A stretch of DNA of 64,000 nucleotides from Candidatus Gottesmanbacteria bacterium (GTDB lineage: Bacteria > Patescibacteriota > Microgenomatia > JAMCYU01). The notes under the pieces were generated by a model. That model had not been told where the DNA came from. It was given only the letters and a program-made list of their open reading frames with translations, and did not search any database. The stretch is taken from positions 2,683-66,682 of the forward strand of contig JAZDMI010000021.1 in assembly GCA_043801155.1 (NCBI GenBank), written 5' to 3'. Of the stretch, positions 21,461-37,828 are shown one piece after another; position 1 is the first letter of the stretch, and each line of letters opens with the position of its first letter. Made by a program: the position numbers and the translations under genes.

Positions 21461-22654
21461 ATGGCAGATGAAGCCAAGAAAAAATACGAGAGGAGTAAAC
21501 CTCATCTTAATATCGGAACTATTGGACATGTTGACCACGGTAAAACTACTTTAACCGCGGCCATTACTCAAGTTTTGGCAAAAAAAGGTTTTTCCAAAGC
21601 TTTGAAGTATGATGAAATTGATAACGCTCCGGAGGAAAAAGCCCGGGGATTGACGATTGCTATTTCTCATGTTGAGTATGAAACGGAAAAACGCCACTAT
21701 GCTCATATTGATTGTCCGGGACACGCCGATTATGTTAAAAACATGATTACCGGCGCCGCCCAGATGGATGGAGCCATATTAGTTGTCTCCGCTCCGGATG
21801 GACCGATGCCGCAAACCAGAGAACATGTACTTTTAGCCAGACAAGTTAATATTCCGGCGATGGTGGTATTTTTAAATAAAGTTGATATGGTTTCGGATCC
21901 GGAACTTCTTGATCTGGTCGAAATGGAAATCCGCGAGTTGTTAAAGAAATACAAATTTGACGGAGATAAAGTACCCATCATCCGCGGTTCAGCCCTAAAA
22001 GCCCTTGACGGAGACGCCAAGGCTGAAGAAGCAATCATGGAATTGATGAAAGCAGTTGATGAATATATTCCGACACCAACTCGAGACCTCGATAAACCAT
22101 TCTTAATGCCAATTGAAGACGTATTCTCAATCAAAGGCCGAGGAACGGTTGTTACCGGCCGGGTTGACCGGGGAAAGGTCAAAGTCAACGAGGAGCTAGA
22201 GATTGTTGGTATTAAAGCCACGACCAAAACAGTGGTTACCGGTGTTGAAATGTTTAGAAAAACTCTTGATGAGGGACAAGCCGGAGACAATATCGGAGTT
22301 TTGCTTCGGGGTGTTGAAAAAGACGATGTCGAGCGAGGCCAAGTCTTGGCCAAGCCGGGATCAATTACTCCTCATACAGAATTTGAGGCCGAAGTTTATG
22401 TTTTAACCAAGGATGAGGGAGGCCGTCATACGCCTTTCTTTACCGGTTATCGGCCGCAATTTTATCTCAGGACAACTGATGTTACCGGTGAAGTAACCTT
22501 ACCCAAGGGTGTGGAAATGGTTATGCCCGGTGACAATACCAAGATGATGATTAAACTGATTGTACCGGTAGCAATTGAAGAGGGTTTACGATTTGCTATT
22601 CGTGAAGGTGGTCATACCGTCGGCGCCGGAGCAGTTAGTAAGATTATTGCCTAA
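21461..22654 (+). CDS. tuf: elongation factor Tu
   Basis: [25 protein letters not shown]. Confidence 0.99.
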
Positions 22655-26112: not shown

Positions 26113-26198
26113 CGTTAATTAGACCCATATTACGGTTATATTAACGGTATATTGACAAAATATCGTTAATATGTTAACATATTGTGATGAGATTAACG
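26113..26198 (+). promoter_or_regulatory. Fic promoter with candidate operators
   Basis: TTGACA at 26152-26157. Perfect 16-bp palindrome AATATGTTAACATATT at 26168-26183, abutting the GTG start. CGTTAAT/ATTAACG inverted pairs at 26113-26146 and 26164-26198. Confidence 0.5.
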
Positions 26199-27056
26199 CG
26201 GTTACAGGTGATTTCTGAACTGTTTGCCCAGTACCAGACAAAAAAAATAAACAAAGAATCTCTTCTTTCTATGGTCGATGATGTGGAAATTGCAGAGAGG
26301 GTCTACAACTCCAATGCCATAGAAAACTCGACACTCACCTTGCCCGAAACGGAAAAAATCCTGCTTCAGCTTGAAGTGAATAGGCATATATCGCTTAGAG
26401 AAGTTTTTGAGGCAAAAAATTTAGCCCAAGTCTACAACTATATTAAAAATACTGCCCCTCAAAAACCACTTTCCCTAGATATGATTTTATTACTTCATAA
26501 AATCCTGCTTACCAATATCCGTGATGAAGTTGCAGGACAGTTTCGTACGGGAAACGAAATGGTGCGGGTAGGAAATCACATCGGCATACCCTCGGAATTT
26601 ATAAGTCAAAGGATTCAAGAAATGCTCGTTCAATATAATTCAGACATGGAAATTTCCTTTATTCATAAAATTGGCCGTTTACATGCGGAGTTTGAAAGTA
26701 TTCACCCTTTTATTGACGGAAATGGCAGGATCGGACGAGTTCTTAATAACTATTTACTTATCCGTGAAGGATTTCCTCCGATTATCGTTAGAAATAAAGA
26801 TAAAGAAACTTATTATGATGCCCTGCGTTCATATGACACTTCGCATAATTTTAAACCAATGATGCGCATAGTTGAGTTAGCTGTTTTAGAATCTTTTCAT
26901 AAACGTCTGGCTTACCTTGAGGGACAGCGGATAATTCCTCTTACTGAATATGCGGCTACTCAAAAAAGATCTTTCCATACTCTTTTAAATTCAAGCCGTC
27001 GTCAAACTATTCCTGCTTTTCGCGAGAAAGGCGTCTGGAAAATCGGAGTAAAATAG
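26184..27056 (+). CDS. Fic/DOC family protein (canonical AMPylase-type motif, class II inhibitory helix)
   Basis: HPFIDGNGRIGR, N-terminal SNAIEN (S/TxxxE[G/N]). Confidence 0.85.
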   Translation: MMRLTRLQVISELFAQYQTKKINKESLLSMVDDVEIAERVYNSNAIENSTLTLPETEKILLQLEVNRHISLREVFEAKNLAQVYNYIKNTAPQKPLSLDMILLLHKILLTNIRDEVAGQFRTGNEMVRVGNHIGIPSEFISQRIQEMLVQYNSDMEISFIHKIGRLHAEFESIHPFIDGNGRIGRVLNNYLLIREGFPPIIVRNKDKETYYDALRSYDTSHNFKPMMRIVELAVLESFHKRLAYLEGQRIIPLTEYAATQKRSFHTLLNSSRRQTIPAFREKGVWKIGVK

Positions 27057-27060
27057 GAGA

Positions 27061-27109
27061 AAATCAAAAAAGTCAAAAGAGAGGAAAGAGGAGAGAGAAA
27101 AATTTAATG
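27061..27109 (+). repeat. polypurine intergenic linker, copy A
   Basis: AAATCAAAAAAGTCAAAAGAGAGGAAAGAGGAGAGAGAAAAATTTAATG. About 90% identical to 27576-27626. Confidence 0.75.
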
Positions 27110-27577
27110 AAAATAAATAAACAAATAAAAATCGAAAAACTTACCGAGAAGAGGTTTAATGAAGCGGTTAATTTGGTTTTGGTCGCCAACCTTGATACGC
27201 GGGAAGAAATTGAACATCACCTAAAACATCTGGATGCCCATTATATTGCCCTTGATAATGATAAAATTGTCGGAGTTATCGGTTGGTATCAGGATAATGT
27301 TCATTATGCCAATGAGGCTATGGGTGATAAATTTCCCGGAGAAGAGGCCTACTGGGTGGGATTTTTTACCACTGATAAAAATTACCGGAGGCAGGGAATT
27401 GGTTTTGCCCTGCTTCAAAAATTGGAGCAGGTAATAAAAGAAAAAGGAGAGGATAAAATTTGGGTATCCTCGGTGCCGGAAACAAAAGACTATTATCAAA
27501 GACAAGGATTTGAATTAGTTTTAATGGGATATATCAACGGCAACCAAAAATGTTTTATGGTTAAAAAACTTCAGTAA
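27107..27577 (+). CDS. GNAT family N-acetyltransferase
   Basis: RRQGIGFALLQKLE acetyl-CoA binding motif. 156 aa. Confidence 0.75.
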   Translation: MKINKQIKIEKLTEKRFNEAVNLVLVANLDTREEIEHHLKHLDAHYIALDNDKIVGVIGWYQDNVHYANEAMGDKFPGEEAYWVGFFTTDKNYRRQGIGFALLQKLEQVIKEKGEDKIWVSSVPETKDYYQRQGFELVLMGYINGNQKCFMVKKLQ

Positions 27578-27626
27578 AAATTAAAAAAGTCAGAAGAGAG
27601 AGGAAAGAAGAGAGAGGAAAATTATG
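27576..27626 (+). repeat. polypurine intergenic linker, copy B
   Basis: AAAAATTAAAAAAGTCAGAAGAGAGAGGAAAGAAGAGAGAGGAAAATTATG. Confidence 0.75.
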
Positions 27627-29099
27627 TTTGAACAATCATTTAAAAATATTGATGATATTCTTCACCGGGATGCCGGATGCGCCACGGAATTAGATTATAT
27701 AGAACAAACTTCATGGATTCTATTCTTGAAATACCTTGATGATTTAGAGGAAACAAAAAGGAAAGAAGCGGTTTTAAAAAATAGACAATATGAATATATT
27801 ATTGCTCCTGAATTTCGCTGGAGCGCTTGGGCGGAACCAAAAACGAAAGATGGCAAATTAGATATGAATAAGGCGTTAACCGGAGACGATCTAAGAGACT
27901 TTGTAAATTTAAAACTTTTTCCATATCTTAAGAAATTTAAAATCGACAATAACGAGAATCAAACAACTATTGAATATAAAATTGGAGAAATTTTCAGTGA
28001 GCTAAAAAACAGGATTGAAAGCGGATACAGACTTCGTGAAATTCTTAACATTGTAGATACGATGCATTTTCGAACCGATAGCGATAAACACGAACTCTCA
28101 CATCTTTATGAAGCTAAAATTAAGAACATGGGAAATGCCGGACGAAACGGCGGAGAATATTACACTCCTCGTCCGCTTATTAAAACGATAGTTAAGGTGG
28201 TAATCCCAAAGATTGGCGATACTATATATGATGGAGCCTGCGGATCTGCCGGATTTCTAGTAGAGTCTTTTGATTATCTTAAACAAAGTAAAGAATTATC
28301 TACCTCAGAATCCGTAAAGCTACAAAATAATACTTTTTACGGTAAGGAAATAAAATCACTTGCATATATTATCGGTGTTATGAATATGATTCTTCATGGT
28401 ATTGAAGCGCCGAATATTCTCCATACAAATACGCTTGCTCAAAACATCAATGATATCGAGGAAAAAGATCGGGTTGACGTAATCCTTACGAATCCGCCAT
28501 TTGGTGCAGGAATAGGTCGGGAAATTCAGCAAAATTTTCCGATAAAAACCGGCGAGACGGCATATCTTTTCCTCCAACACTTTATCAAAATGCTCAAAGC
28601 CGGAGGAAAAGCCGGAGTGGTGATTAAAAATACTTTTCTTTCTAATACTGATAACGCATCCGCTTCGCTTCGTAAACGTCTTCTTGAGAGTTGTAATCTT
28701 CACACCGTGCTTGATTTGCCTGGCGGCGTCTTTACGGGAGCAGGTGTAAAAACCGTGGTATTGTTTTTTGAAAAAGGCTCGCCAACCAAAAAAGTATGGT
28801 TCTATCAGTTAAACCTTGACCGCAATCTAGGCAAAGGTAATCCCTTAAGCGAAGCGGATCTATCAGAATTCGTCGAACTGCAAAAAACCAAAGCAGGTAG
28901 CAAAAATTCTTGGAGCGTAGACATAAAAGATATTAATCAAACAACATTTGATTTATCGGTAAAGAATCCAAACAAAGGGAGAGAAGTAACCCTACGCGAA
29001 CCGAAAGAGATTTTGGAGGGAATGAGGAAGCTAGACAAGGAAAGTGAAAATACATTTAAGATTATTAAAAACATATTAAATACTGGAATAAATGAATAA
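27624..29099 (+). CDS. hsdM: type I restriction-modification system, DNA methyltransferase subunit M
   Basis: HsdM N-terminal domain, YYTPR, DGACGSAGFL, NPPFG. Confidence 0.9.
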   Translation: MFEQSFKNIDDILHRDAGCATELDYIEQTSWILFLKYLDDLEETKRKEAVLKNRQYEYIIAPEFRWSAWAEPKTKDGKLDMNKALTGDDLRDFVNLKLFPYLKKFKIDNNENQTTIEYKIGEIFSELKNRIESGYRLREILNIVDTMHFRTDSDKHELSHLYEAKIKNMGNAGRNGGEYYTPRPLIKTIVKVVIPKIGDTIYDGACGSAGFLVESFDYLKQSKELSTSESVKLQNNTFYGKEIKSLAYIIGVMNMILHGIEAPNILHTNTLAQNINDIEEKDRVDVILTNPPFGAGIGREIQQNFPIKTGETAYLFLQHFIKMLKAGGKAGVVIKNTFLSNTDNASASLRKRLLESCNLHTVLDLPGGVFTGAGVKTVVLFFEKGSPTKKVWFYQLNLDRNLGKGNPLSEADLSEFVELQKTKAGSKNSWSVDIKDINQTTFDLSVKNPNKGREVTLREPKEILEGMRKLDKESENTFKIIKNILNTGINE

Positions 29100-29730
29100 T
29101 TTATTAGCCTTGTTAGAGAAATATCAGACCCAAAATATTATCGCCGTCATAGCTTTAATATTGGCTTATTTAGCGTACAGAAAATCGGTTATTGATGAGT
29201 ATAGGAGTTGGTTGGATCTGGCAAAATCTTTCCAACACGAATTGAATTACGCAAAATATTGGATAGGAAATAGTTATGAAAAGATGATGAGTATAGATTG
29301 GTCGAATCCCTCCAGATTTGTTTATCCTCTTACCGCCGAAGCCGCGAAAGCGTTAATTTGGAAAGGACATCCGCCAAAGAGAATATTCCCAGATGATTTT
29401 TTTGATAAATTAGCTATATATAACGAACGTATTCAGGCATTTAACCATTTTTTAATGATTCAAGGAATCAATTATGTAGTGGCGGAAGTTGATAATAAAA
29501 ATGAAAAAATTTCAGAAAAAGCAAAGCATATTAATTATATCATCCATAATGATCTTATAGGTAGCCAGGATAATTATCACTTACACAATCTTTATAATTA
29601 TTTTAGTTGTCAATTGAAAATGATTGAAAAAGCAGATCTTTTGCTGATTCCATGGTATTTTAAATATCCTGAACGAATAGTTCTTGCTACTATTTTTATT
29701 TATATTATAGTTGATTATTTTATTCAGTGA
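29092..29730 (+). CDS. hypothetical membrane protein embedded between hsdM and hsdS
   Basis: 8-nt overlap with hsdM and GTGA overlap with hsdS. TM helices at both termini. I recognise no motif. Confidence 0.55.
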   Translation: MNNLLALLEKYQTQNIIAVIALILAYLAYRKSVIDEYRSWLDLAKSFQHELNYAKYWIGNSYEKMMSIDWSNPSRFVYPLTAEAAKALIWKGHPPKRIFPDDFFDKLAIYNERIQAFNHFLMIQGINYVVAEVDNKNEKISEKAKHINYIIHNDLIGSQDNYHLHNLYNYFSCQLKMIEKADLLLIPWYFKYPERIVLATIFIYIIVDYFIQ

Positions 29731-30884
29731 TTATGAAAACCAACTGGCAAACAAAAAAACTCGAAGATGTAGCAAATGTTCATGGTGGTGGTACTCCACC
29801 AACCAGTCACCCAGAATATTTTCAAGGAAATATAAATTGGTATTCTCCAACTGAGATACCTAAATTCGAAGTTACAACGCTCAAAGAAAGTCAGAAAAAA
29901 ATTTCCGATTCTGCAATAAAATTTACTACTATTTCAAGAACAAATTCAGTCCTTTTAACAAGCAGAGCTACAATTGGTACGGTTGGTATTTTGTCAACTG
30001 CTTCCGGATATAGTCAGGGCATAAAAGGAATCGAACCGGGTCCCGAACTAGACTCGTGGTATCTAGCGCATTGGTTGAGATCAAATAAAGATGAGATTAT
30101 TAATAAGGCTTCTGGTACAACCTTTAAGGAAATTAGTACAAGTGAAATAAAAAAGCTAGAAATTCCTATCCCTCCAATTGCTCAGCAAAAGAAAATTGTT
30201 AATTCCATAGAGAATATCTTGGGAAAAATTGAAAAGGCAAAAGAGAATACAGAGAAAAATCTGCAAAACGCCAAAGCTCTTTTTGAATCATATTTACAAA
30301 GTATTTTTGCGAATCCAGGAAAAGATTGGGAAGAGAAAAGATTAGGTGATGTTTGTATGGTCATTGCTGGTCAATCACCGGAAGGAAAATTCTATAACAA
30401 ATCGGGTAGGGGTTTACCTTTCTATCAGGGAAAAAAAGAATTTGAAGAAAGATATCTTGGGAAACCAACAACATGGACAACAGACATTACCAAAGAGGCG
30501 CAAAATGGTGATATTTTAATGTCAGTTCGAGCCCCTGTGGGACCTATTAATTTTGCAACTCAAAAAATTTGCATCGGTCGGGGTCTTACCGCAATTCGAG
30601 CCGGAAAAGATATTGATGAAAACTTTTTATTTTATAATTTACTCTCAAAAGAAAAAGAAATCATTGGTAATGCCGGAGCTGTATTTGCATCAATCAATAA
30701 ATCCGACATTGAGAGTTTAAAATTATTTTTACCATCTCTTCCCGAACAAAAATCTATTGATATAAAACTTGACACAATTTATGCCGAAACAAAAAAACTG
30801 GAAGCAATTTATAAACAAAAATTAGCTGATTTAGAAGAGCTAAAAAAATCGGTTTTGAGAAAAGCATTTAAAGGAGAATTGTAA
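29727..30884 (+). CDS. hsdS: type I restriction-modification system, specificity subunit S
   Basis: Two target-recognition halves separated by coiled-coil spacers (IAQQKKIV..., LPEQKSI...). 385 aa. Confidence 0.85.
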   Translation: MIMKTNWQTKKLEDVANVHGGGTPPTSHPEYFQGNINWYSPTEIPKFEVTTLKESQKKISDSAIKFTTISRTNSVLLTSRATIGTVGILSTASGYSQGIKGIEPGPELDSWYLAHWLRSNKDEIINKASGTTFKEISTSEIKKLEIPIPPIAQQKKIVNSIENILGKIEKAKENTEKNLQNAKALFESYLQSIFANPGKDWEEKRLGDVCMVIAGQSPEGKFYNKSGRGLPFYQGKKEFEERYLGKPTTWTTDITKEAQNGDILMSVRAPVGPINFATQKICIGRGLTAIRAGKDIDENFLFYNLLSKEKEIIGNAGAVFASINKSDIESLKLFLPSLPEQKSIDIKLDTIYAETKKLEAIYKQKLADLEELKKSVLRKAFKGEL

Positions 30885-30886
30885 TT

Positions 30887-31606
30887 ATGAAATATATAAA
30901 AAAGCTTAATATGGTTTGTTTTAACTTACTGGAACTGAAGACGCTATATAAGACTGACAAAGTAATAAAAATTCTTATAGAAGCAAATAAAACAAGGTGT
31001 AATATCGTTAATTCATCTAAAGAACAATCTAAAAAGATCGTAGATTCAGTCGTGAAAGGAGATTTAAAACAAAAGGAGGAAATTGAAATATTCTCGGCGT
31101 TAAGCTTATGTGCCTTATTTTTCGAGAATGATAGTTTTATAGGTTTCGTTTTGAAGGACGGCTATGATGTAGGAAAAAACCCAATACAAACATTAGAAGG
31201 TTTGAAAAAGGCTGCGAAAGAAGATACTCTTACTGATTTTGCAATTATCACCAAAAGTGGAATGCGAGAATTTCAGCTAAAACAATTTTATAGACAAAAA
31301 CTGGAGACGGAAGACCTTTTTAACTTTATAAAAGAAAAAATTGAACATTATGGTGGTAATTTTGGTACCACTGCTTTGTTATTCTCGGTTAGAGGTGATG
31401 GAATAGGACCTTGTCAAAGCAATATTTCTTTTAAAGAAATTCACGAGAGGCTTTGCAAACTTAATTTAGACAGAAATGGATTAATTTTGATTTGGTATAA
31501 TGATGGCAACAAAAAACAGGTGATAATTGAAGTTTATCCTGATTTATCGGCATGCCAAAAAGAAACAGGTATTCACGATCAAACAAAAAATACCCTATAT
31601 AATTAG
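30887..31606 (+). CDS. hypothetical protein embedded between hsdS and hsdR (weak D...QxK nuclease-like pattern)
   Basis: 2-nt gap after hsdS. TDFAIITKSGMREFQLK resembles D-x13-Q-x-K of the Mrr-type PD-(D/E)xK motif. This is speculative. Confidence 0.5.
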   Translation: MKYIKKLNMVCFNLLELKTLYKTDKVIKILIEANKTRCNIVNSSKEQSKKIVDSVVKGDLKQKEEIEIFSALSLCALFFENDSFIGFVLKDGYDVGKNPIQTLEGLKKAAKEDTLTDFAIITKSGMREFQLKQFYRQKLETEDLFNFIKEKIEHYGGNFGTTALLFSVRGDGIGPCQSNISFKEIHERLCKLNLDRNGLILIWYNDGNKKQVIIEVYPDLSACQKETGIHDQTKNTLYN

Positions 31607-31617
31607 ATCTAAAAATT

Positions 31618-33972
31618 ATGAACGAAGCAGAAACACGAGCCGAATATATTGATCCAAAACTGAAAGCTAGCGGTTGGGGAGAAGTTGAGGGATCAAAAGT
31701 ATTACGGGAATATCGTATCACCGAAGGACGGATTTTGGTTGGTGGAATACGTGCTAAACCGGAAATTGCTGATTATATCCTCGTATACAAAAACCAAAAA
31801 CTGGCAATTATTGAAGCAAAGCCGGATGAATCTGCCGTTACAGAGGGTGTCGCTCAAGCAAAAGTCTACGCCCAGAAGATGCAGATTGATTATACCTACT
31901 CAACCAACGGTAAAGAAATTTATCAAATTTCCATGAAATCCGGGAAAGAAGAGATTGTAGATGCGTTTTCGACCCCGGATGAGTTATGGAAAAAAGTGTA
32001 TTCAGATCAAAATGAATGGAAAGAGAAATTTGCTTCAATTCCTCTTGAGGGAGAATTAGGGAAACGATACTACCAGGAATCAGCCATTAATAACGTTATG
32101 AATGCGATTGCTGAAGATAAGAAACGAGTGCTACTTACTATGGCAACAGGAACCGGTAAGACAGCGATTGCATTTCAGACCTCTTGGAAGCTATATCAAA
32201 CGCGTTGGACTTTACAACGTGATGGAAATCGGCGTCCGAGAATTCTTTTTCTTGCCGATAGAAATATTCTTGCGGATCAAGCGTTTAATACCTTCGGTGC
32301 TTTTCCGGAAGATGCATTAGTTCGAATTAATCCTCTTGATATTCGGAGGAAGGGATTAGTTCCGATGAACGGAAGTATCTTTTTCACTATTTTTCAAACA
32401 TTTATGAGCGGACCGCAGGGAACACCTTATTTTGGTGATTATCCTCCTGATTTTTTTGATTTTATTGTCATTGATGAATGTCATCGTGGAGGAGCTAATG
32501 ATGAGGGAAACTGGCGCGGAATTTTAGAGTATTTTTCTCCAGCAGTTCAGCTTGGATTAACGGCCACACCAAAAAGAAGAGATAACGTAGATACATATAG
32601 ATATTTTGGCGATCCGGTATATATTTATTCACTTAAGGAAGGGATTAATGATGGATTTTTGACACCTTTTAAGGTGAAACGTATCCAAACAACCCTTGAT
32701 GAATATGTGTACACATCTGACGACCAAGTAATTGAAGGAGAAGTTGAAGCCGGTAAGGTATATAAAGAGCCTGATTTTAATAAAATCATAGAAATAAAAG
32801 AGCGCGAGGCAAAACGAGTTCAATTGTTGCTTGAGAATATAAACCAGAACGAGAAAACAATTGTTTTTTGTGCAACCCAGGATCATGCCCTAGCGGTACG
32901 GGATCTGGTAAATCAATATAAAAAAAGTAAAGATCCTTTTTACTGCGTCCGGGTAACGGCTAATGACGGAGCGCGTGGCGAGCAATATTTACGAGAATTT
33001 CAGGATAATGAAAAGACGATTCCTACGATATTAACCACTTCACAAAAGCTTTCTACTGGTGTTGATGCCAGAAATATCCGTAATATCGTTCTTATGCGTC
33101 CGGTTAATACCATGATCGAATTTAAACAGATTATTGGGCGTGGAACTCGGTTATTTGACGGAAAAGAATATTTTACAATCATTGATTTTGTTGATGCGTA
33201 TAAACTTTTTTTAGATCCTGAATGGGACGGCGAACCGATAGCGAATATTTGCCCAAAGTGTAACCAGGATCCCTGTATTTGCGAAAAAACTCCGCCGAAA
33301 GTTTGTCCTATTTGCGGGCAAAGACCGTGTATTTGTATTAGAGAACCAAGAATTTGTCCAATATGTGGAAAATTCCCATGTGAATGTGAATCAAAAAAGA
33401 AAATAAAAATAAAACTGCGCGATGGCAAAGAGCGAGAGATTCAACATATGATTTCTACTTCTTTTTGGGGGGCAGATGGTAAACCGATGTCGTCGGAGGA
33501 GTTTATTCAAAGCCTTTATGGAGTATTGCCGGATCTGTTTAAAAACGAAGAGGAACTTCGGAATATATGGTCAAATCCTGTGACAAGGAAACGATTTTTG
33601 GAACGGCTTTTTGATATTGGCATTGATTTAGAACAGATAGAAAATATTACCAAGATTGTTAATGCTGAACAATGTGATTTTTATGATGTGCTCTTGTATC
33701 TTGCATTTAGCAATCCACTCATTACACGTAAACAGCGGGCTGAGAAGAATAAAAATCATATTTTTGAAAATTTGTCTGATAAAGAAGGAGAATTTCTCAA
33801 CTTCGTACTGAAAAAATATGAAGAAACCGGATTTGAAGAACTTGACGAGGAGAAATTACCAATACTTCTGAATCTAAAATACCACGCTATTGCAGACGCA
33901 GAAGAAGCACTAGGAAATGTAGAAAATATTAGAGCAACATTCTTAGGATTTCAGGAAGATCTCTATAGCTAG
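31618..33972 (+). CDS. hsdR: type I restriction enzyme, R subunit (EcoEI/IB-like C-terminal region)
   Basis: HSDR_N-like MNEAETRAEYIDPKL, D..EAK nuclease core, MATGTGKT, DECHRG, C-terminal EcoEI_R_C-like region. Three CPxC-x3-PCxC repeats. Confidence 0.9.
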   Translation: MNEAETRAEYIDPKLKASGWGEVEGSKVLREYRITEGRILVGGIRAKPEIADYILVYKNQKLAIIEAKPDESAVTEGVAQAKVYAQKMQIDYTYSTNGKEIYQISMKSGKEEIVDAFSTPDELWKKVYSDQNEWKEKFASIPLEGELGKRYYQESAINNVMNAIAEDKKRVLLTMATGTGKTAIAFQTSWKLYQTRWTLQRDGNRRPRILFLADRNILADQAFNTFGAFPEDALVRINPLDIRRKGLVPMNGSIFFTIFQTFMSGPQGTPYFGDYPPDFFDFIVIDECHRGGANDEGNWRGILEYFSPAVQLGLTATPKRRDNVDTYRYFGDPVYIYSLKEGINDGFLTPFKVKRIQTTLDEYVYTSDDQVIEGEVEAGKVYKEPDFNKIIEIKEREAKRVQLLLENINQNEKTIVFCATQDHALAVRDLVNQYKKSKDPFYCVRVTANDGARGEQYLREFQDNEKTIPTILTTSQKLSTGVDARNIRNIVLMRPVNTMIEFKQIIGRGTRLFDGKEYFTIIDFVDAYKLFLDPEWDGEPIANICPKCNQDPCICEKTPPKVCPICGQRPCICIREPRICPICGKFPCECESKKKIKIKLRDGKEREIQHMISTSFWGADGKPMSSEEFIQSLYGVLPDLFKNEEELRNIWSNPVTRKRFLERLFDIGIDLEQIENITKIVNAEQCDFYDVLLYLAFSNPLITRKQRAEKNKNHIFENLSDKEGEFLNFVLKKYEETGFEELDEEKLPILLNLKYHAIADAEEALGNVENIRATFLGFQEDLYS

Positions 33973-34036: not shown

Positions 34037-34110
34037 TGTTATAATAATAGTGGTTTAAGCGGTCTGCGTTTGGCAGACGACTATTGCAGCCTATCAGGGC
34101 TGCTTTTTTT
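34037..34110 (+). ncRNA. candidate small RNA or attenuator leader (extended -10 promoter, two hairpins, terminator)
   Basis: TGtTATAAT at 34037-34045. GTCTGC/GCAGAC hairpin at 34062-34078. GCAGCC-tatcag-GGCTGC plus T7 at 34086-34110. The RBS and ATG of the next ORF follow directly. Confidence 0.4.
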
Positions 34111-34130: not shown

Positions 34131-34430
34131 ATGCAAATTGATAAAGATAAATCAACTTATGTTCTTCCGTATCAGGTAATAATTCTTGATGCGACTGATG
34201 CTTATTACTATGCAGATATAATGGATAATATGAAACTCTTTGATGAGACAGATTCATTATCTTTAGCAGAGAAATTGGCCGATGCTCTATTTATTGTATA
34301 TAACTATAAATGGAACAGTCTGGAAGAAATGAATAAGGTTGACGGAGGATATGATATAAGAGTTTATGATCAAAAATATTCTTGTGTCTATGCAGCTCAT
34401 AAGAAATATCTGAATAAATGGATAATCTAA
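34131..34430 (+). CDS. hypothetical protein
   Basis: GGAAGGAGGTG RBS. 99 aa. Confidence 0.55.
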   Translation: MQIDKDKSTYVLPYQVIILDATDAYYYADIMDNMKLFDETDSLSLAEKLADALFIVYNYKWNSLEEMNKVDGGYDIRVYDQKYSCVYAAHKKYLNKWII

Positions 34431-34458: not shown

Positions 34459-34902
34459 ATGAAAAAAAGTTACAGCGCCGGAGGATTGGTGGTTAATAAA
34501 TATGGTCAGATATTGGTTGTCAACCAATACGGAAACTCATGGTCATTACCTAAAGGGCATATTGAACCCGGAGAAGATATTTTGACTACGGCAAAAAGAG
34601 AAATCACCGAAGAATCCGGGATAACTGATCTAAAGTTAATAAAAGAGTTAGGGTCTTACGAAAGGCCGAGACTCGGATTAGACCCAAGAAATAATGACAT
34701 CTCGAAAGTAAAAAATATAACTCTTTTTCTATTTGTAACAGATCAACTCGAGACAAAACCTCAAGATTTAGACAATCCCGAGGCTATTTGGCTTAAACCA
34801 AGAAAAGCAGTTGGACGTCTGACGAGCAAGAAAGACAAGGAGTTTCTTCAAAAAAGTCTACGTTTGATAGATCTTAAAAAATTAATTAGCTTCACACCTT
34901 AA
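34459..34902 (+). CDS. NUDIX hydrolase
   Basis: Nudix box GHIEPGEDILTTAKREITEESGI. Confidence 0.85.
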   Translation: MKKSYSAGGLVVNKYGQILVVNQYGNSWSLPKGHIEPGEDILTTAKREITEESGITDLKLIKELGSYERPRLGLDPRNNDISKVKNITLFLFVTDQLETKPQDLDNPEAIWLKPRKAVGRLTSKKDKEFLQKSLRLIDLKKLISFTP

Positions 34903-34931
34903 AGGTGGACTAGGTTCACACCTTCTTCCTT

Positions 34932-34960
34932 TTGCCTTTTTGGGACGGCTGATTTAAATC
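34932..34960 (+). promoter_or_regulatory. promoter-like module J2a
   Basis: TTGCCT-TTTTGGGACGGCTGATT-TAAATC. Confidence 0.5.
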
Positions 34961-34966
34961 ACATTT

Positions 34967-34995
34967 TTGCATTTTCGTTTCTTCTGACCTAAACT
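34967..34995 (+). promoter_or_regulatory. promoter-like module J2b
   Basis: TTGCAT-N17-TAAACT, 10 nt before ATG 35006. Confidence 0.6.
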
Positions 34996-35005
34996 TCAAG
35001 TAGAT

Positions 35006-35242
35006 ATGAATAGTCACGTAAGGTTTATAAAGGCAATTAATATCTGCCTTAAATATGACGAAATAAACACCCATTTACTTCAAAGAAAATTAATGATCGG
35101 TTATTCTACCGCACATATAATTTTCAAGAAACTAAAGGAATTAAAAGTTATAACCGGAGAAAAATATATCTATAATCCCTTTGGAAAAGTTAAAGTTGGA
35201 ACAGTTGACAAAAAGACTGCCAGGTTTTATTTAGTCAACTAA
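35006..35242 (+). CDS. stand-alone FtsK-gamma-like winged-helix protein
   Basis: INTHLLQRKLMIGYSTAHIIFKKLKELKVI resembles the FtsK gamma motif (LLQRRLRIGYNRAARLI). Confidence 0.55.
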   Translation: MNSHVRFIKAINICLKYDEINTHLLQRKLMIGYSTAHIIFKKLKELKVITGEKYIYNPFGKVKVGTVDKKTARFYLVN

Positions 35243-35260
35243 TAAATTTTGTAAATTTCT

Positions 35261-35289
35261 TTGCCTTTTTGAGTATGATGATCTAAACT
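35261..35289 (+). promoter_or_regulatory. promoter-like module J3
   Basis: TTGCCT-N17-TAAACT, 9 nt before GTG 35299. Confidence 0.6.
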
Positions 35290-35298
35290 GGGATTAGA

Positions 35299-35814
35299 GT
35301 GGATATTGATATTAGTGGTCTTTTCAGAAAATCTTTCATTGACTCCTTACCCACCTTATTTTATTTATTAATTCCAATAATAATAATTTCAGGTCTGGTT
35401 ATTGCCATAAAAATTGGTTATTATTTTTACCGCCAGCATATCTATAATAAGGCCGGGTTGGATAAAATTGATAAAATGCCCGGTTACGTTTTTGAAGAAT
35501 ACCTTACAAATCTGTTTGCCCGGTTAGGTTACAGAGTAAATCATATTGGTAAGTTTGGAGATTTTGGGGGAGATTTAATTATCGAAAAAGATGGAATGAA
35601 AACATTAGTTCAGGCGAAAAGATCAAGTGATAGAATAAGAGAGAAAGCAATTCAGGAAGCCGTAACTGCAAAAGAGTACTACCATTGTGATAAAGCTATG
35701 GTAGTTACTAATAATTATTTTTATAAACATGCGTGGACGTTGGGCAAGGGAACAAATATAGACTTATGGGCAAGAAATAAATTGGCTGAAGTTATCTCTC
35801 AGAATATAAATTAA
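35299..35814 (+). CDS. membrane-anchored Mrr-like restriction endonuclease domain protein
   Basis: N-terminal TM. FEEYLTNLFARLGY...GDFGGDLIIEKDGMKTLVQAKRS (D-x12-QAK, Mrr_cat-like). Confidence 0.7.
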   Translation: MDIDISGLFRKSFIDSLPTLFYLLIPIIIISGLVIAIKIGYYFYRQHIYNKAGLDKIDKMPGYVFEEYLTNLFARLGYRVNHIGKFGDFGGDLIIEKDGMKTLVQAKRSSDRIREKAIQEAVTAKEYYHCDKAMVVTNNYFYKHAWTLGKGTNIDLWARNKLAEVISQNIN

Positions 35815-35819
35815 TTCTT

Positions 35820-35848
35820 TTGCCTTTTTGGGTCTGCTGATTTAAACT
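35820..35848 (+). promoter_or_regulatory. promoter-like module J4
   Basis: TTGCCT-TTTTGGGTCTGCTGATT-TAAACT. Confidence 0.6.
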
Positions 35849-35867
35849 AATATTATAGGAATATTCA

Positions 35868-36584
35868 ATGATTAAAATTAATACCACATTTATTAATACT
35901 TCTTCTGATAATTCTTCAAAAGGTTCTCCGGGGAATATACAATTTAACTTTAAATCATCATATTCTTTTAACAACAAATTATTATTTCATTTAGATTTTA
36001 AAGATCCTTCTCTCTATTTGCTATTATTTACAAATTTATCAACTATTTATTTTGCCTATATAGAACACTGGAATCTTTTAACAGTGATGTGGATATACTG
36101 GTTCCAGAGTATAATCATTGGTTTATTCACGTTTGTTAGACTAATAAACTTGCGAAATTATAATTCTCGGGCAATCTCTTTTATTATTAGTTATGGAATA
36201 TTTCATATGGGATTTCTGGTTTTTCTATTGTTAGGATTTTTAGGCAATGCTACTAGGGGAATAGTCTCTGAATTTGGTTTTGTTTTGATGTCCGCCTTTT
36301 TATTTTTCGTCAACCACTTATTTTCTTATTTTTATAATAAAGATCGTGATCAGGAAGGATTTATTTTTCACAAAGATGTAGATAGAATAATCTCGATTTC
36401 ATATATGCGTATAATACCCATGCATATAATAATTATTCTCGGGCAAATTATAACTTCAATTTTTTTATCGGAGGCAAGATACACTCTTTTTCTCTTTTTA
36501 TTTTTAAAGACTTATGCTGATTTATATTCCCATACACTTAAGCATACATCTGCTGCTTCGCCAATAGATGTAAAGAATTCTTAA
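35868..36584 (+). CDS. hypothetical multi-pass membrane protein
   Basis: At least 5 hydrophobic helices. 238 aa. Confidence 0.55.
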   Translation: MIKINTTFINTSSDNSSKGSPGNIQFNFKSSYSFNNKLLFHLDFKDPSLYLLLFTNLSTIYFAYIEHWNLLTVMWIYWFQSIIIGLFTFVRLINLRNYNSRAISFIISYGIFHMGFLVFLLLGFLGNATRGIVSEFGFVLMSAFLFFVNHLFSYFYNKDRDQEGFIFHKDVDRIISISYMRIIPMHIIIILGQIITSIFLSEARYTLFLFLFLKTYADLYSHTLKHTSAASPIDVKNS

Positions 36585-36596
36585 ATTTTATAATTT

Positions 36597-36625
36597 TTGC
36601 ATTTTCTGCCATTTTGATCTAGACT
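36597..36625 (+). promoter_or_regulatory. promoter-like module J5
   Basis: TTGCAT-TTTCTGCCATTTTGATC-TAGACT. RBS AAGAGGA before ATG 36647. Confidence 0.6.
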
Positions 36626-36646
36626 TCGTAAACAAGAGGACCATAT

Positions 36647-37519
36647 ATGACTTTTAATCCAAATGCTGTTTTCATTTCTCCTTCATCCATCTCTGATTTT
36701 AAAACATGTCCACAAACTTATTATTATCGGAATGTCTATAGAAATCCGAAGACTGGATTAAAAATACAAATAATTAATCCAAAACTAGCGCTTGGTGCAA
36801 CAGTGCATGATATATTAGCTCAATTCCTACACACCCAGGGAATAGAAAAAACTAAAGATCAATTACTCAATATCCTTCAGAGATATTGGGGACAGATTAC
36901 TGGTGAAAAAGGAGGATTTAAAACAGAAGAGGAAGAAAAACAATACAAAGAAAGGGCATCAAAAATGTTGGATATTTTTTGGGGAAATAACCATTTTAGG
37001 GAGGTACAACCGGTAAAACTACCCGATTTCCCAAAGGTATATTTTGATGACGATTTAATTCTCACTGGAAAACTTGACTGGATTGAGCTAGAGACAGAAA
37101 ATAAATATCACATCATTGACTTTAAAACTGGAGAAAACGAAGAACGAAGCGATTCTATGCAATTACCTATTTATGCCGTTCTTGCTTCAAATATTTTAAA
37201 AACCTCTGAAATAAAAGCAAGCTATTGGTATCTTGATAGAGATGCCGACTTGAAAAAATTCGATCTGCCCGATTTAAAAGAAACAACAGAAAAACTTAAA
37301 AAAATTGGTTATGTAATTAAAAATAGTCGGTTAACAAATTCTTTTAAATGCAGTTCGGGATACGAGTCGTGTTGGTCTTGTAAAGATTTGCTATCCATTA
37401 GCAATGGAAAGGGTAAACTTGTTTCTGTTGATTACAATCGTAAACAAGAAGTTTATATAATTCCTCCAACAGAAGATAAGCCTATATTAGAAAAACCTAT
37501 TGATGACATTCCTTTCTAA
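36647..37519 (+). CDS. PD-(D/E)XK nuclease, Cas4/RecB-like with 4-Cys cluster signature
   Basis: N-terminal FKTCPQ Cys. IIDFKTG core. QLPIYA. C-terminal C-x6-C-x2-C (CSSGYESCWSC). Confidence 0.7.
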   Translation: MTFNPNAVFISPSSISDFKTCPQTYYYRNVYRNPKTGLKIQIINPKLALGATVHDILAQFLHTQGIEKTKDQLLNILQRYWGQITGEKGGFKTEEEEKQYKERASKMLDIFWGNNHFREVQPVKLPDFPKVYFDDDLILTGKLDWIELETENKYHIIDFKTGENEERSDSMQLPIYAVLASNILKTSEIKASYWYLDRDADLKKFDLPDLKETTEKLKKIGYVIKNSRLTNSFKCSSGYESCWSCKDLLSISNGKGKLVSVDYNRKQEVYIIPPTEDKPILEKPIDDIPF

Positions 37520-37547
37520 AGAATATGTTTATATCTTCTTCTTCTTT

Positions 37548-37576
37548 TTGCATTTTCTGACTTTCTGATTTAGACT
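37548..37576 (+). promoter_or_regulatory. promoter-like module J6
   Basis: TTGCAT-TTTCTGACTTTCTGATT-TAGACT. Confidence 0.6.
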
Positions 37577-37612: not shown

Positions 37613-37828
37613 ATGATAAAAATAAAAATTGCTGATTGGGAGAAAAAGAAATATCCGCTCGAAGATCCTAAAGATATTGAGGTTTTAGGGAAAATTCATG
37701 AATTGGAAAATCTTCCGCTTTCTTCCGAAGACAAGAAGTTGGTTAATTTTATCCGCACCCAACTTGAGGAAGATTGGCAAACTCCCTGTCTTAATTTCCT
37801 CGAAGATATCTTAAAGAAATATAGATAG
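37613..37828 (+). CDS. hypothetical protein
   Basis: 71-aa ORF downstream of module J6. Confidence 0.45.
   Translation: MIKIKIADWEKKKYPLEDPKDIEVLGKIHELENLPLSSEDKKLVNFIRTQLEEDWQTPCLNFLEDILKKYR

Follow-up and report, generated by a model that had tools for sequence, protein, structure and literature searches.

A probable stand-alone, membrane-anchored Mrr-type nuclease in a row of apparently separately promoted genes beside a Type I restriction-modification island of Candidatus Gottesmanbacteria

The locus lies in a 64-kb stretch of DNA (the window) from a metagenome-assembled genome of Candidatus Gottesmanbacteria, a CPR bacterium. Calling of open reading frames (ORFs) yields five consecutive plus-strand genes, and the NCBI annotation of the source genome carries the identical five proteins (MFH0863999.1 to MFH0864003.1). 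The preliminary description had read in them a Nudix box, an FtsK-gamma-like winged helix (wHTH), a transmembrane (TM) helix followed by an Mrr_cat core, a polytopic membrane protein and a four-cysteine nuclease, and these domains prove real when searched against Pfam, the wHTH scoring just below threshold. The five genes and the features around them are:

26184..27056, + strand: Fic-domain protein, SoFic/PDC-S04-like, in the upstream island (Pfam Fic 1.5e-19; PADLOC PDC-S04 3.7e-36, SoFic 2.1e-29)
27624..33972, + strand: Type I restriction-modification (R-M) operon, hsdM - unk212 - hsdS - unk239 - hsdR (Pfam, PADLOC)
34046..34110, + strand: double-hairpin intrinsic terminator with a T-run, closing the R-M operon (terminator scan, DNA fold)
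34131..34430, + strand: 99-aa ORF, a singleton cluster, MFH0863998.1 (NCBI call)
34459..34902, + strand: generic Nudix hydrolase (PF00293, E=1.3e-17)
34929..34995, + strand: two tandem copies of a 32-nt element ahead of the wHTH gene (PWM 39.6 and 41.5 bits)
35006..35242, + strand: FtsK-gamma-like winged-helix protein, 78 aa (PF09397, BLASTP)
35258..35289, + strand: element, ending 9 nt before the start codon of the next gene (PWM 39.9 bits)
35299..35814, + strand: single-pass TM + Mrr_cat (PD-(D/E)XK) nuclease, TM-Mrr, a candidate stand-alone defence nuclease (PF04471)
35817..35848, + strand: element ahead of the DUF6498 gene (PWM 46.8 bits)
35868..36584, + strand: DUF6498 polytopic membrane protein (PF20108, E=4.8e-31)
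36594..36625, + strand: element ahead of the Cas4-like nuclease gene (PWM 40.4 bits)
36647..37519, + strand: Cas4-family/RecB-type four-Cys nuclease, first gene of the conserved backbone (PF12705, PDDEXK_1, E=2.3e-25)
37545..37576, + strand: element ahead of the 71-aa ORF (PWM 40.7 bits)
37613..37828, + strand: 71-aa ORF, MFH0864004.1 (NCBI call)

Judged by its predicted gene content, the region directly upstream is a true defence island, with a complete Type I R-M system, a SoFic/PDC-S04-like Fic gene and an NYN nuclease gene. The R-M genes are tightly packed (gaps of -8, -4, +2 and +11 nt, in order) and match N6_Mtase (1.5e-65), Methylase_S (1.5e-44) and ResIII/EcoEI_R_C in Pfam, HsdR also matching PADLOC REase_I (2.8e-130). 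The terminator that closes the operon folds as DNA at -15.5 kcal/mol (z=-4.5; 0 of 200 shuffles equally stable). As in other defence islands beside Type I R-M systems, genes of this kind are gathered here: MazG-like, NYN, SoFic-like Fic and GNAT genes, the R-M operon and TM-Mrr occupy the stretch from the end of tuf to about 36.6 kb. The difference is that most of the flagged genes, three or four out of five, are bystanders or backbone rather than defence genes; DUF6498 and the Cas4-like nuclease are such genes, and the Nudix and wHTH genes probably are. The defence setting proposed in the preliminary description is supported by the upstream island and by the restriction and defence genes near members of the TM-Mrr family; the joining of five genes into one system is not supported. 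The 99-aa and 71-aa ORFs at either end have no match in Pfam, PADLOC, NCBIfam or PHROGs, and an Rfam search of the window gave none. In line with the absence of cas1/cas2 and of a CRISPR array noted earlier, there is no CRISPR-like or tandem array within the 64-kb window and no cas family among the family-scanned ORFs between 23 and 50 kb.

The 32-nt element has the consensus TTTTTGCmTTTT-N-cTGAyyTArACT, in which a -35-like TTGCmT and a -10-like TArACT are separated by 18 nt. Its six copies, all intergenic, score 39.6-46.8 bits by PWM versus a shuffle maximum of 16.3, and within the window the full-length element is found only in this cluster. Every gene from the wHTH onward has its own copy, the Nudix gene a degenerate one only. 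Outside the window the element occurs only in a close relative, where it stands before YceG and before an unrelated ORF of 70 aa. At 57313 its first half is combined with a canonical TATAAT. These features suggest a lineage-typical, promoter-like element. A terminator scan and DNA folding of the spacers found no terminator or hairpin between the five genes; since the element is also concentrated in the cluster, with two copies before the wHTH gene, some co-transcription or co-regulation is possible. An integron gene-cassette array, in which attC sites (imperfect hairpins with inverted core sites) separate the cassettes, was rejected as an account of the repeats: the five spacers fold no better than shuffles (z -1.3 to +1.1), and the element is a direct bipartite repeat that also precedes YceG in the relative.

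Neither the Nudix nor the FtsK-gamma-like protein has a demonstrable link to the other genes; both come from small genes of a generic type. The Nudix protein matches PF00293 well above its Pfam cutoff (64.5 versus 21.1 bits), and its translation contains a perfect Nudix box, GX5EX7REUXEEXGU (G33-HIEPG-E-DILTTAK-RE-I-T-EE-S-G-I). It falls under all NCBIfam equivalog cutoffs and so receives no equivalog-level assignment, matches PADLOC PDC-S07 at only 5e-7 and has no relative among the viral contigs searched. The wHTH protein scores 28.7 bits against FtsK_gamma (PF09397), just under the gathering score of 30.6 bits, and 0.0049 against phrog_13700 (PHROGs). Its likeness to the FtsK gamma domain is backed by a BLASTP E value of 8e-5 with E. 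coli FtsK gamma over an alignment spanning the QRxxxIGYxxAxxI helix; unlike in FtsK, the domain stands alone here, without the motor.

Co-occurrence of the five genes was assessed around DUF6498, TM-Mrr and Cas4-like nuclease loci by single-sequence phmmer searches (E<=1e-3) of naively called ORFs, which could leave very divergent partners out of the counts that follow. The 80 DUF6498 genome loci (+-10 kb) hold no TM-Mrr, Cas4-like nuclease or FtsK-gamma relative, and four generic Nudix relatives. None of the other four genes accompanies TM-Mrr in 80 metagenomic loci, many metagenomic loci spanning only 1-5 kb, or in 63 viral loci, and the ten nuclease loci contain none of the others save one weak FtsK_gamma fusion. 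The five genes do not co-occur elsewhere in the loci examined and are not a conserved cluster, at odds with the five-gene anti-phage cluster first proposed. PADLOC likewise finds no system in them, returning domain-level matches to single genes and no two adjacent full-length components.

Among the five flagged genes, only TM-Mrr looks like a defence gene. Its Mrr_cat domain (residues 57-165; PF04471, 88.8 bits versus a cutoff of 21, E=3.6e-25) follows a 56-residue N-terminal segment with a single hydrophobic helix at residues 19-37; in Pfam only Mrr_cat and NA-iREase1 are matched, and PADLOC mREase_IV is matched at only 0.0084. The catalytic residues E66, D92 and Q105-A-K107 are invariant in 14 homologs. 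Five K/R residues after the TM helix versus two before it suggest, by the positive-inside rule, that the nuclease domain faces the cytoplasm. The family, with members of ~170-280 aa that have one N-terminal TM helix and a predicted intact Mrr_cat domain, comprises 4,559 clusters (50% identity) at E<=1e-30 and is found in CPR bacteria and many further phyla as well as in prophages; 58 of 63 viral and 65 of 80 metagenomic homologs retain the TM helix. Family members are enriched beside restriction and defence genes and in prophage accessory regions. PADLOC searches of the neighbouring genes hit 97 families, among them mREase_IV (4 members, best 1.7e-216), REase_I (4), PbeA (5), AbiLi, ZacA and SoFic, and Pfam searches hit, among others, ResIII, GmrSD_N, MTES_1575, Mrr_cat and Fic. 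Prophage copies have an integrase nearby in 13 loci and a ParB-methylase in 7, and in Roseburia phage Jekyll the gene adjoins a toxin-antitoxin (TA) pair and an integrase. The position of the gene differs between close relatives, and it has no fixed partner (the commonest neighbour is found in at most 4 of ~61 loci).

TM-Mrr shares its catalytic domain, with an intact E...D...QxK motif, and R-M genes alongside, with Mrr and Type IV restriction enzymes (PF04471). Canonical Mrr reads modified DNA through an N-terminal winged-helix DNA-binding domain; in TM-Mrr a TM helix takes the place of that domain, and its specificity must therefore have a different source. A PADLOC match to ZorD of Zorya, which joins a SWI2/SNF2 helicase to an Mrr-like nuclease, was rejected because it covers only the C-terminal nuclease part (940-1063 of 1071); neither ZorA nor ZorB is found among the scanned neighbour ORFs. 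Compared by architecture and not by sequence, TM-Mrr resembles Epona, an anti-phage system encoded by one cassette gene in the Vibrio cholerae superintegron, with activity shown in E. coli (bioRxiv 10.1101/2024.07.02.601686). Both are small proteins with N-terminal TM segment(s) and a C-terminal Mrr_cat domain, and both are encoded by single genes, TM-Mrr lacking a conserved partner. They differ in that Epona is described with a holin-like domain of two TM helices where TM-Mrr has one hydrophobic segment, and in that Epona is an integron cassette almost confined to V. cholerae (bioRxiv 10.1101/2024.07.02.601686) whereas no attC-like structure is present at the TM-Mrr locus. A functional analogy, and no closer one, can be drawn with SNIPE (PD-lambda-1), in which a single-pass N-terminal TM anchor precedes a cytoplasmic nuclease; the tether holds this non-specific enzyme off the chromosome, and phage DNA is cleaved at injection (Saxton et al., Nature 2026, PMC13190303). 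SNIPE combines a DUF4041 DNA/TMP-binding domain with a GIY-YIG nuclease (PMC13190303), whereas TM-Mrr is a ~170-aa protein with a PD-(D/E)XK Mrr_cat domain and, according to Pfam, neither of these. Guilt by association and the architectural parallel to Epona suggest that TM-Mrr probably works alone as a membrane-tethered defence nuclease. The membrane tether would hold the enzyme clear of the chromosome; it may cut incoming DNA at the membrane or else be released or activated upon infection.

The DUF6498 protein (108.1 bits versus a Pfam gathering cutoff of 23.7) is modelled by AlphaFold (AF2) as an 8-helix membrane bundle (pLDDT 81.9) with a disordered N-terminal extension of 46 residues. It is a widespread, solitary, non-defence membrane protein unrelated to the nucleases. 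Its 454 loci are spread across phyla. Its neighbours are housekeeping genes (PNPase, queuosine synthesis, GDH, tRNA synthetase, DnaB) and match 16 PADLOC families with one member each, and none is conserved (the commonest occurs in at most 5 of ~76 loci).

The last of the five genes encodes a predicted nuclease of the Cas4/AddB/AdnAB superfamily, with a RecB-like core, a QxxxY motif and four putative cluster-ligand cysteines, one N-terminal and three C-terminal. This 1+3 pattern, read correctly in the preliminary description, is formed by C21, C235, C242 and C245, which are invariant in 25 homologs together with D144, D158-x-K160, Q172 and Y176. The D...DxK...QxxxY core and the cysteines are shared with ACE1, AdnAB/AddB and Cas4, and the best fold matches are Cas4-family ACE1 (E=1e-9, TM 0.61-0.66) and the AdnAB nuclease domains (E=3e-8). 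However, the cysteine spacing is C...Cx6CxxC, as opposed to the CxxCx5C of Cas4/AddB, the AdnAB/AddB domains are fused to helicases whereas this nuclease stands alone, and unlike ACE1 and Cas4 it adjoins neither Argonaute nor cas genes; no Piwi/Argonaute family is found among the flanking ORFs, so the genomic association of ACE1 is missing here. CRISPR-associated Cas4 was rejected on its scores (TIGR00372, 35.9 versus a cutoff of 65; PF01930, 17.9 versus 22.7) and on the lack of an array in the window and of cas families among the ORFs scanned. The 694-aa neighbour has no match in any library searched. The nuclease has 686 homologs across Microgenomates (54-83% identity), mostly in housekeeping contexts. 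The closest relative has the gene order nuclease, DEAD helicase, YceG as well, and the breakpoint of DNA homology and synteny with it lies at 36643, 4 nt ahead of the nuclease ATG; an HsdS-like gene likewise lies upstream of the nuclease in that relative. The C terminus ends in an invariant SSB-tip-like D-L-P-F (D-[LI]-P-F), to our knowledge not a feature of the ACE1, AdnAB/AddB or Cas4 families, and because of this tail the conserved, lineage-core gene probably serves DNA repair. As a predicted iron-sulfur RecB/Cas4-family enzyme, the protein may process or repair DNA ends and may be recruited through its flexible tail. The preliminary description had placed it, as a solo nuclease, in a possible defence gene cluster; a core gene in mostly housekeeping contexts is the kind of outcome which that description had itself named as a refutation.

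Taking these data together, the five genes are very likely not one system. The best explanation is a series of neighbouring genes, acquired independently and each under a promoter of its own, between the Type I R-M island and conserved chromosomal backbone; they encode a lineage-core Cas4-like nuclease, a probable stand-alone TM-Mrr defence nuclease, a non-defence DUF6498 protein and generic Nudix and FtsK-gamma-like proteins. A co-regulated module, with the wHTH protein binding the element as an operator and switching on nucleases, Nudix and membrane protein together, would agree with the confinement of six full copies to the cluster, the tandem pair ahead of the wHTH gene and the lack of terminators. 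It is very unlikely, given that the genes co-occur nowhere else examined, that the close relative carries the element before an unrelated ORF and the housekeeping gene YceG, that the halves of the element resemble promoter boxes at promoter spacing and the first recurs with TATAAT, that the nuclease is a core gene and that the Nudix gene has a degenerate copy only. A two-gene membrane defence module in which TM-Mrr docks on the polytopic DUF6498 protein, as the preliminary description had imagined for a tethered nuclease and its partner, is extremely improbable. The two genes adjoin on one strand with a gap of 53 nt, and each encodes a membrane protein, but an Mrr relative is found in 0 of 80 DUF6498 loci and a DUF6498 relative in 0 of 143 TM-Mrr loci. 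The module is contradicted by these neighbourhood data and largely refuted; the housekeeping surroundings of DUF6498, with few PADLOC matches, and the separate promoter-like element of each gene also argue against it.

It is highly unlikely that the Cas4-like gene is a defence component, either an ACE1-like Argonaute partner or the remnant of a CRISPR adaptation module. The ACE1 fold match and the PADLOC matches to Aga_Cas4-like_Nuc (3.3e-7) and Cas4 (1.6e-9) would fit such a role, but the nuclease domains of the repair enzyme AdnAB fit nearly as well, the curated Cas4 cutoffs are missed, the flanking ORFs scanned include neither an Argonaute nor a cas gene, the window has no CRISPR array, and both the conservation of the gene in housekeeping contexts and its SSB-tip-like tail speak for another function. 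For TM-Mrr the alternative is a housekeeping membrane nuclease, for instance one that processes imported DNA to feed nucleotide salvage, a route on which CPR bacteria presumably rely. A membrane-anchored, predicted intact and non-specific nuclease domain lacking a DNA-recognition domain would suit this task. Such a role is unlikely, as the domain should face the cytoplasm, the family ranges over many phyla and is often carried by prophages, next to integrases and TA pairs, its neighbours are restriction and defence genes, and close relatives do not share its position.

Under the preferred reading, in which TM-Mrr is a stand-alone defence nuclease, a broader and tentative possibility is that this ~170-aa protein stands for a very large and so far hardly characterised family of minimal immune nucleases, each encoded by one gene. 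Its members might discriminate self from non-self by position, in the manner of SNIPE, a non-specific PD-(D/E)XK domain on the cytoplasmic side of the membrane cutting DNA as it is injected. If this is true, the TM-Mrr family would provide immunity by position, without readout of sequence or modification.

The window comes from a Candidatus Gottesmanbacteria MAG (CPR/Patescibacteria, Microgenomates), on a contig of 272,544 bp whose proteins in this region are deposited at NCBI as MFH0863998.1 to MFH0864007.1 (locus tags V1858_02845 to V1858_02890). The five plus-strand ORFs that the preliminary description had proposed as a possible anti-phage gene cluster are all present with the domains claimed for them, and Pfam supports each, with the FtsK_gamma match lying slightly under its cutoff:

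34459-34902, plus strand: Nudix protein (Pfam 1.3e-17)
35006-35242, plus strand: FtsK_gamma-like winged-helix (wHTH) protein (Pfam 28.7 bits, cutoff 30.6)
35299-35814, plus strand: Mrr_cat nuclease with a transmembrane (TM) helix, TM-Mrr (Pfam 3.6e-25)
35868-36584, plus strand: DUF6498 membrane protein (Pfam 4.8e-31)
36647-37519, plus strand: PDDEXK_1, Cas4-like nuclease (Pfam 2.3e-25)

Consistent with that description, the window contains no CRISPR-like array; an Rfam scan of it gave no matches. Since the domains, the TM helix, the invariant residues, the fold and the absence of an array all agree with what had been reported, the observation is confirmed. Its interpretation stands in part: the defence-island setting and a defensive role for the Mrr nuclease gain support, whereas it is mistaken on the five-gene cluster, the pairing of TM-Mrr with the membrane protein and the assignment of the Cas4-like gene to defence.

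The region upstream of the five genes is a real defence island. Between tuf and the five genes lie MazG-like, NYN, Fic and GNAT genes together with a complete Type I restriction–modification (R-M) operon, and it is this operon, the Fic gene and the other upstream genes that bear out the proposed setting. HsdR matches REase_I in PADLOC (2.8e-130), and the Fic protein matches PDC-S04 (3.7e-36) and SoFic (2.1e-29). The main features upstream are as follows:

21461-22654: tuf, upstream of the defence island
27624-33972: Type I R-M operon, hsdM–unk212–hsdS–unk239–hsdR
29092-29730: unk212 (212 aa), between hsdM and hsdS
30887-31606: unk239 (239 aa), between hsdS and hsdR
34046-34110: strong double-hairpin terminator with a T-run, after hsdR, closing the R-M operon (-15.5 kcal/mol, z=-4.5)

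The SoFic/PDC-S04-like Fic gene is followed 50 nt on by the GNAT acetyltransferase gene, directly upstream of hsdM (26184-27577); Fic and GNAT proteins also adjoin TM-Mrr homologs elsewhere (two loci each). Within the operon, unk212 and unk239 overlap or abut their R-M neighbours (gaps of -8, -4, +2 and +11 nt) and have no match in Pfam, NCBIfam, PADLOC, PHROGs or plasmids. Unk239 holds the position of PrrC in the prr locus, so both ORFs may be accessory or defence genes linked to the R-M system. The five genes are followed by a 71-aa ORF, DegV and a 694-aa ORF, then housekeeping genes (SAM methyltransferase, EngB-type and Obg GTPases, DEAD helicase, radical SAM enzyme). The 694-aa ORF (MFH0864007.1; 39379-41463, minus strand) is a singleton at 90% identity, with no match in Pfam, NCBIfam, PADLOC or PHROGs. 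Per-gene GC and GC3 do not distinguish island genes from backbone genes.

Co-occurrence of the five genes was assessed at loci anchored on DUF6498, TM-Mrr and the Cas4-like nuclease, neighbourhoods being compared by single-sequence phmmer on naive ORF calls, with many of the metagenomic loci short. A DUF6498 profile scan of one genome per species yielded 454 loci, in Patescibacteria, DPANN and other archaea, Gammaproteobacteria, Planctomycetota and others. Within ±10 kb of the best 80 of these, phmmer picked up relatives of neither TM-Mrr nor the Cas4-like nuclease nor the wHTH protein; only four of the loci held generic Nudix proteins. TM-Mrr loci numbered more than 412 in metagenomes and 64 in IMG/VR; of these, 80 metagenomic and 63 viral loci were analysed and held no DUF6498, Cas4-like, Nudix or FtsK-gamma relatives, and no relatives of the Nudix protein were found in viral contigs. 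Ten loci of nuclease relatives (54-83% identity) likewise lacked the other four genes, with one partial exception at L233, another Microgenomates relative locus, where a T5orf172–FtsK_gamma fusion protein matches the wHTH protein weakly (E=3e-4). Neighbour clustering revealed no conserved partner for TM-Mrr (largest family, an HsdR-like helicase, 4 of ~61 loci) or for DUF6498 (largest family, 5 of ~76 loci). The five-gene cluster therefore does not recur at loci anchored on these three genes, the outcome that the preliminary description had itself named as refuting it. The suggested partnership of TM-Mrr with the membrane protein goes the same way, TM-Mrr being found at 0/80 DUF6498 loci and DUF6498 at 0/80 metagenomic and 0/63 viral TM-Mrr loci. 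Of the five, between two and four are bystanders or belong to the backbone, and nuclease and hydrolase domains lined up beside an R-M system are by themselves no proof of a defence system.

The spacers of the cluster share a repeated sequence. The 64-kb window contains exactly five instances of the motif GAYYTARACT, all on the plus strand and all within these spacers. The motif makes up the 3' half of a bipartite element of 32 nt, TTTTTGCmTTTT-N-cTGAyyTArACT, of which the window holds six full copies (39.6-46.8 bits, where shuffled sequence reached at most 16.3):

34929 and 34964: tandem pair, ahead of the wHTH gene
35258: ahead of TM-Mrr
35817: ahead of DUF6498
36594: ahead of the nuclease gene
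37545: ahead of the 71-aa ORF
33974, 37835 and 57310: degenerate copies

The two halves contain a -35-like TTGCmT and a -10-like TArACT, 18 nt apart, and the 3' ends of the elements lie 9-36 nt ahead of start codons, short distances that imply near-leaderless mRNAs for wHTH and TM-Mrr. The first half alone precedes many other plus-strand genes, and at 57313 it is accompanied by a canonical TATAAT. In 1.68 Mb of other loci the full element was found only in L085, the closest Gottesmanbacteria relative locus, where its copies (2469 and 6179) precede an unrelated ORF of 70 aa and YceG.

These features are best read as those of a lineage-typical, promoter-like element, as judged from its sequence; if it is a promoter, each gene would be its own transcription unit. 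An integron-cassette origin is rejected: the five spacers downstream of the R-M terminator are unstructured, and are therefore neither attC sites nor terminators, and the repeat is a direct, bipartite one that is also found ahead of YceG in L085. A general genome-wide promoter, considered for the exact 10-mer, was dropped, since within the window the complete 32-nt element is limited to this cluster. The element could instead be an operator for the wHTH protein, whose own gene follows the tandem pair, but this has a low probability, the L085 ORF behind the element bearing no relation to that protein. Read-through and some co-regulation among the genes are possible, because no terminators separate them.

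Among the five genes, TM-Mrr is the one plausible defence gene, and the balance tips slightly towards its being a defence gene at all. The protein has a single hydrophobic helix (residues 19-37) with positive charge mostly after it, which predicts a cytoplasmic nuclease domain, and E66, D92 and Q105-x-K107 are invariant among homologs. The family is very large and defence-associated, with 4,559 clusters (50% identity) at E<=1e-30 and 19,138 at E<=1e-10. Top matches are mostly 160-280 aa long and align from the TM region across the nuclease domain; the N-terminal hydrophobic helix is retained in 58 of 63 viral and 65 of 80 metagenomic homologs. Neighbouring genes (140 ORFs, compared with 148 in the DUF6498 set) match 97 PADLOC families, including Type IV mREase (four members, best 1.7e-216), Type I REase (four), PbeA (five), AbiLi, ZacA, HEC-05 and SoFic, and Pfam identifies ResIII, SWI2/SNF2, GmrSD_N, MTES_1575, a second Mrr_cat, Fic and GNAT among them. 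Prophage copies lie near an integrase in 13 loci and near a ParB-methylase in 7. Roseburia phage Jekyll (LR596902.1, 42230-43072) encodes a 280-aa Mrr_cat relative, annotated 'putative restriction endonuclease', between an Xre-like antitoxin/toxin pair and an HslV-like protease, with the integrase ~1 kb away, in a typical prophage accessory region. Neighbours rich in restriction and defence families and this accessory placement in prophages both favour the proposed defensive role of the Mrr nuclease.

A sequence search against solved structures returned nothing significant for TM-Mrr or the Cas4-like nuclease. As far as could be found, the only architecturally similar tested protein is Epona, a single-gene cassette from the V. 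cholerae superintegron with validated anti-phage activity, described as Mrr_cat fused to a two-TM holin-like domain (10.1101/2024.07.02.601686). Likened by description, the two architectures are alike in outline, although TM-Mrr has one TM helix and Epona two. With SNIPE, a TM–DUF4041–GIY-YIG protein held at the membrane, which avoids self-cleavage, and cutting phage DNA during injection (PMC13190303), TM-Mrr has the logic alone in common. Unlike canonical Mrr, TM-Mrr lacks an N-terminal DNA-reading domain. Because of this absence, the Epona-like outline and the SNIPE logic, we propose that TM-Mrr may be a stand-alone membrane-tethered nuclease, which would act on incoming DNA or be activated on infection.

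The Cas4-like nuclease is a backbone gene. Its invariant residues are C21, C235, C242, C245, D144, D158-x-K160 and Q172...Y176, and its AlphaFold model is confident (pLDDT 89.2), with the Argonaute-associated Cas4-family ACE1 as top fold match (E=1e-9, TM 0.61-0.66), followed by AdnAB nuclease domains (E=3e-8); canonical Cas4 matches weakly. In all, 686 homologs were detected, called 'RecB family exonuclease' by some sources; they match over their full length with 54-83% identity and come from Gottesmanbacteria, Shapirobacteria, WWE3 and other Microgenomates. In L085, where the nuclease is 83% (aa) and 85% (nt) identical, the genes for nuclease, DEAD helicase and YceG (2843, 4936, 6217) lie within 3.5 kb; the window keeps the identical order (36647, 45842, 54904) with ~8 kb inserted per pair. 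Nucleotide homology starts at 36643, 4 bases ahead of the nuclease ATG. Because L085 too has an HsdS-like gene upstream, the site preceding the nuclease appears to be a variable, R-M-collecting spot, and the Type I R-M genes there in both genomes suggest recurrent integration. Elsewhere the nuclease gene mostly has housekeeping neighbours (Dus, RecA/RecX, ribosomal proteins, NTP-transferase, glycosyltransferases, RecO, tRNA synthetase, MraZ). At L233 (6791-13888) the nuclease gene lies 6 nt after a PIF1-type helicase and is followed by an SbcC/Rad50-like AAA_23 protein and DUF2130, a group that may be a split helicase–nuclease end-processing module; the T5orf172 (GIY-YIG)–FtsK_gamma fusion gene is immediately upstream. 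The many Microgenomates homologs, their mostly housekeeping contexts and the backbone order common to L085 all argue against the defence function first attributed to this gene.

A trait that the preliminary description had not mentioned is the C-terminus: the nuclease ends in -PF in 118 of 120 homologs and in -DLPF in 97, the window protein in -DDIPF. The linker ahead of the almost invariant D-[LI]-P-F tip is variable in sequence and length and disordered in the model (C-terminal residues 276-290 of the window protein, 37475-37519). The acidic C-terminal tip of bacterial SSB (DDDIPF) is a protein-recruitment motif, and by analogy the resemblance suggests recruitment into the SSB interactome. 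The protein would thus be a stand-alone, predicted iron–sulfur Cas4-family nuclease, apparently near-universal in Microgenomates, and probably a DNA-end-processing or repair enzyme recruited via its SSB-tip-like tail.

DUF6498 is a bystander. Across 76 genomes, the genes directly beside it have ordinary functions (PNPase, queuosine synthesis, glutamate dehydrogenase, transglycosylase, tRNA synthetase, DnaB) and match only 16 PADLOC families, with one member each. The protein is modelled with confidence as a bundle of eight helices, preceded by a disordered 46-residue extension at the N-terminus; no solved structural relatives were found, nor any mention of the family in the literature searched. 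Within the helices, conserved His, Asp, Arg and Lys residues point tentatively to an enzyme or a transporter.

TM-anchored Mrr nucleases and Cas4-family repair nucleases are already known as kinds, and the novelty here is modest; two side leads are the TM-Mrr family, for its size and its association with defence genes, and the Microgenomates nuclease, for its SSB-tip-like tail. TM-Mrr would be a cheap single-gene candidate for phage challenge and a possible second, independent case of SNIPE-style spatial self/non-self discrimination, and the Microgenomates nuclease may serve as the end-processing nuclease of these reduced genomes.
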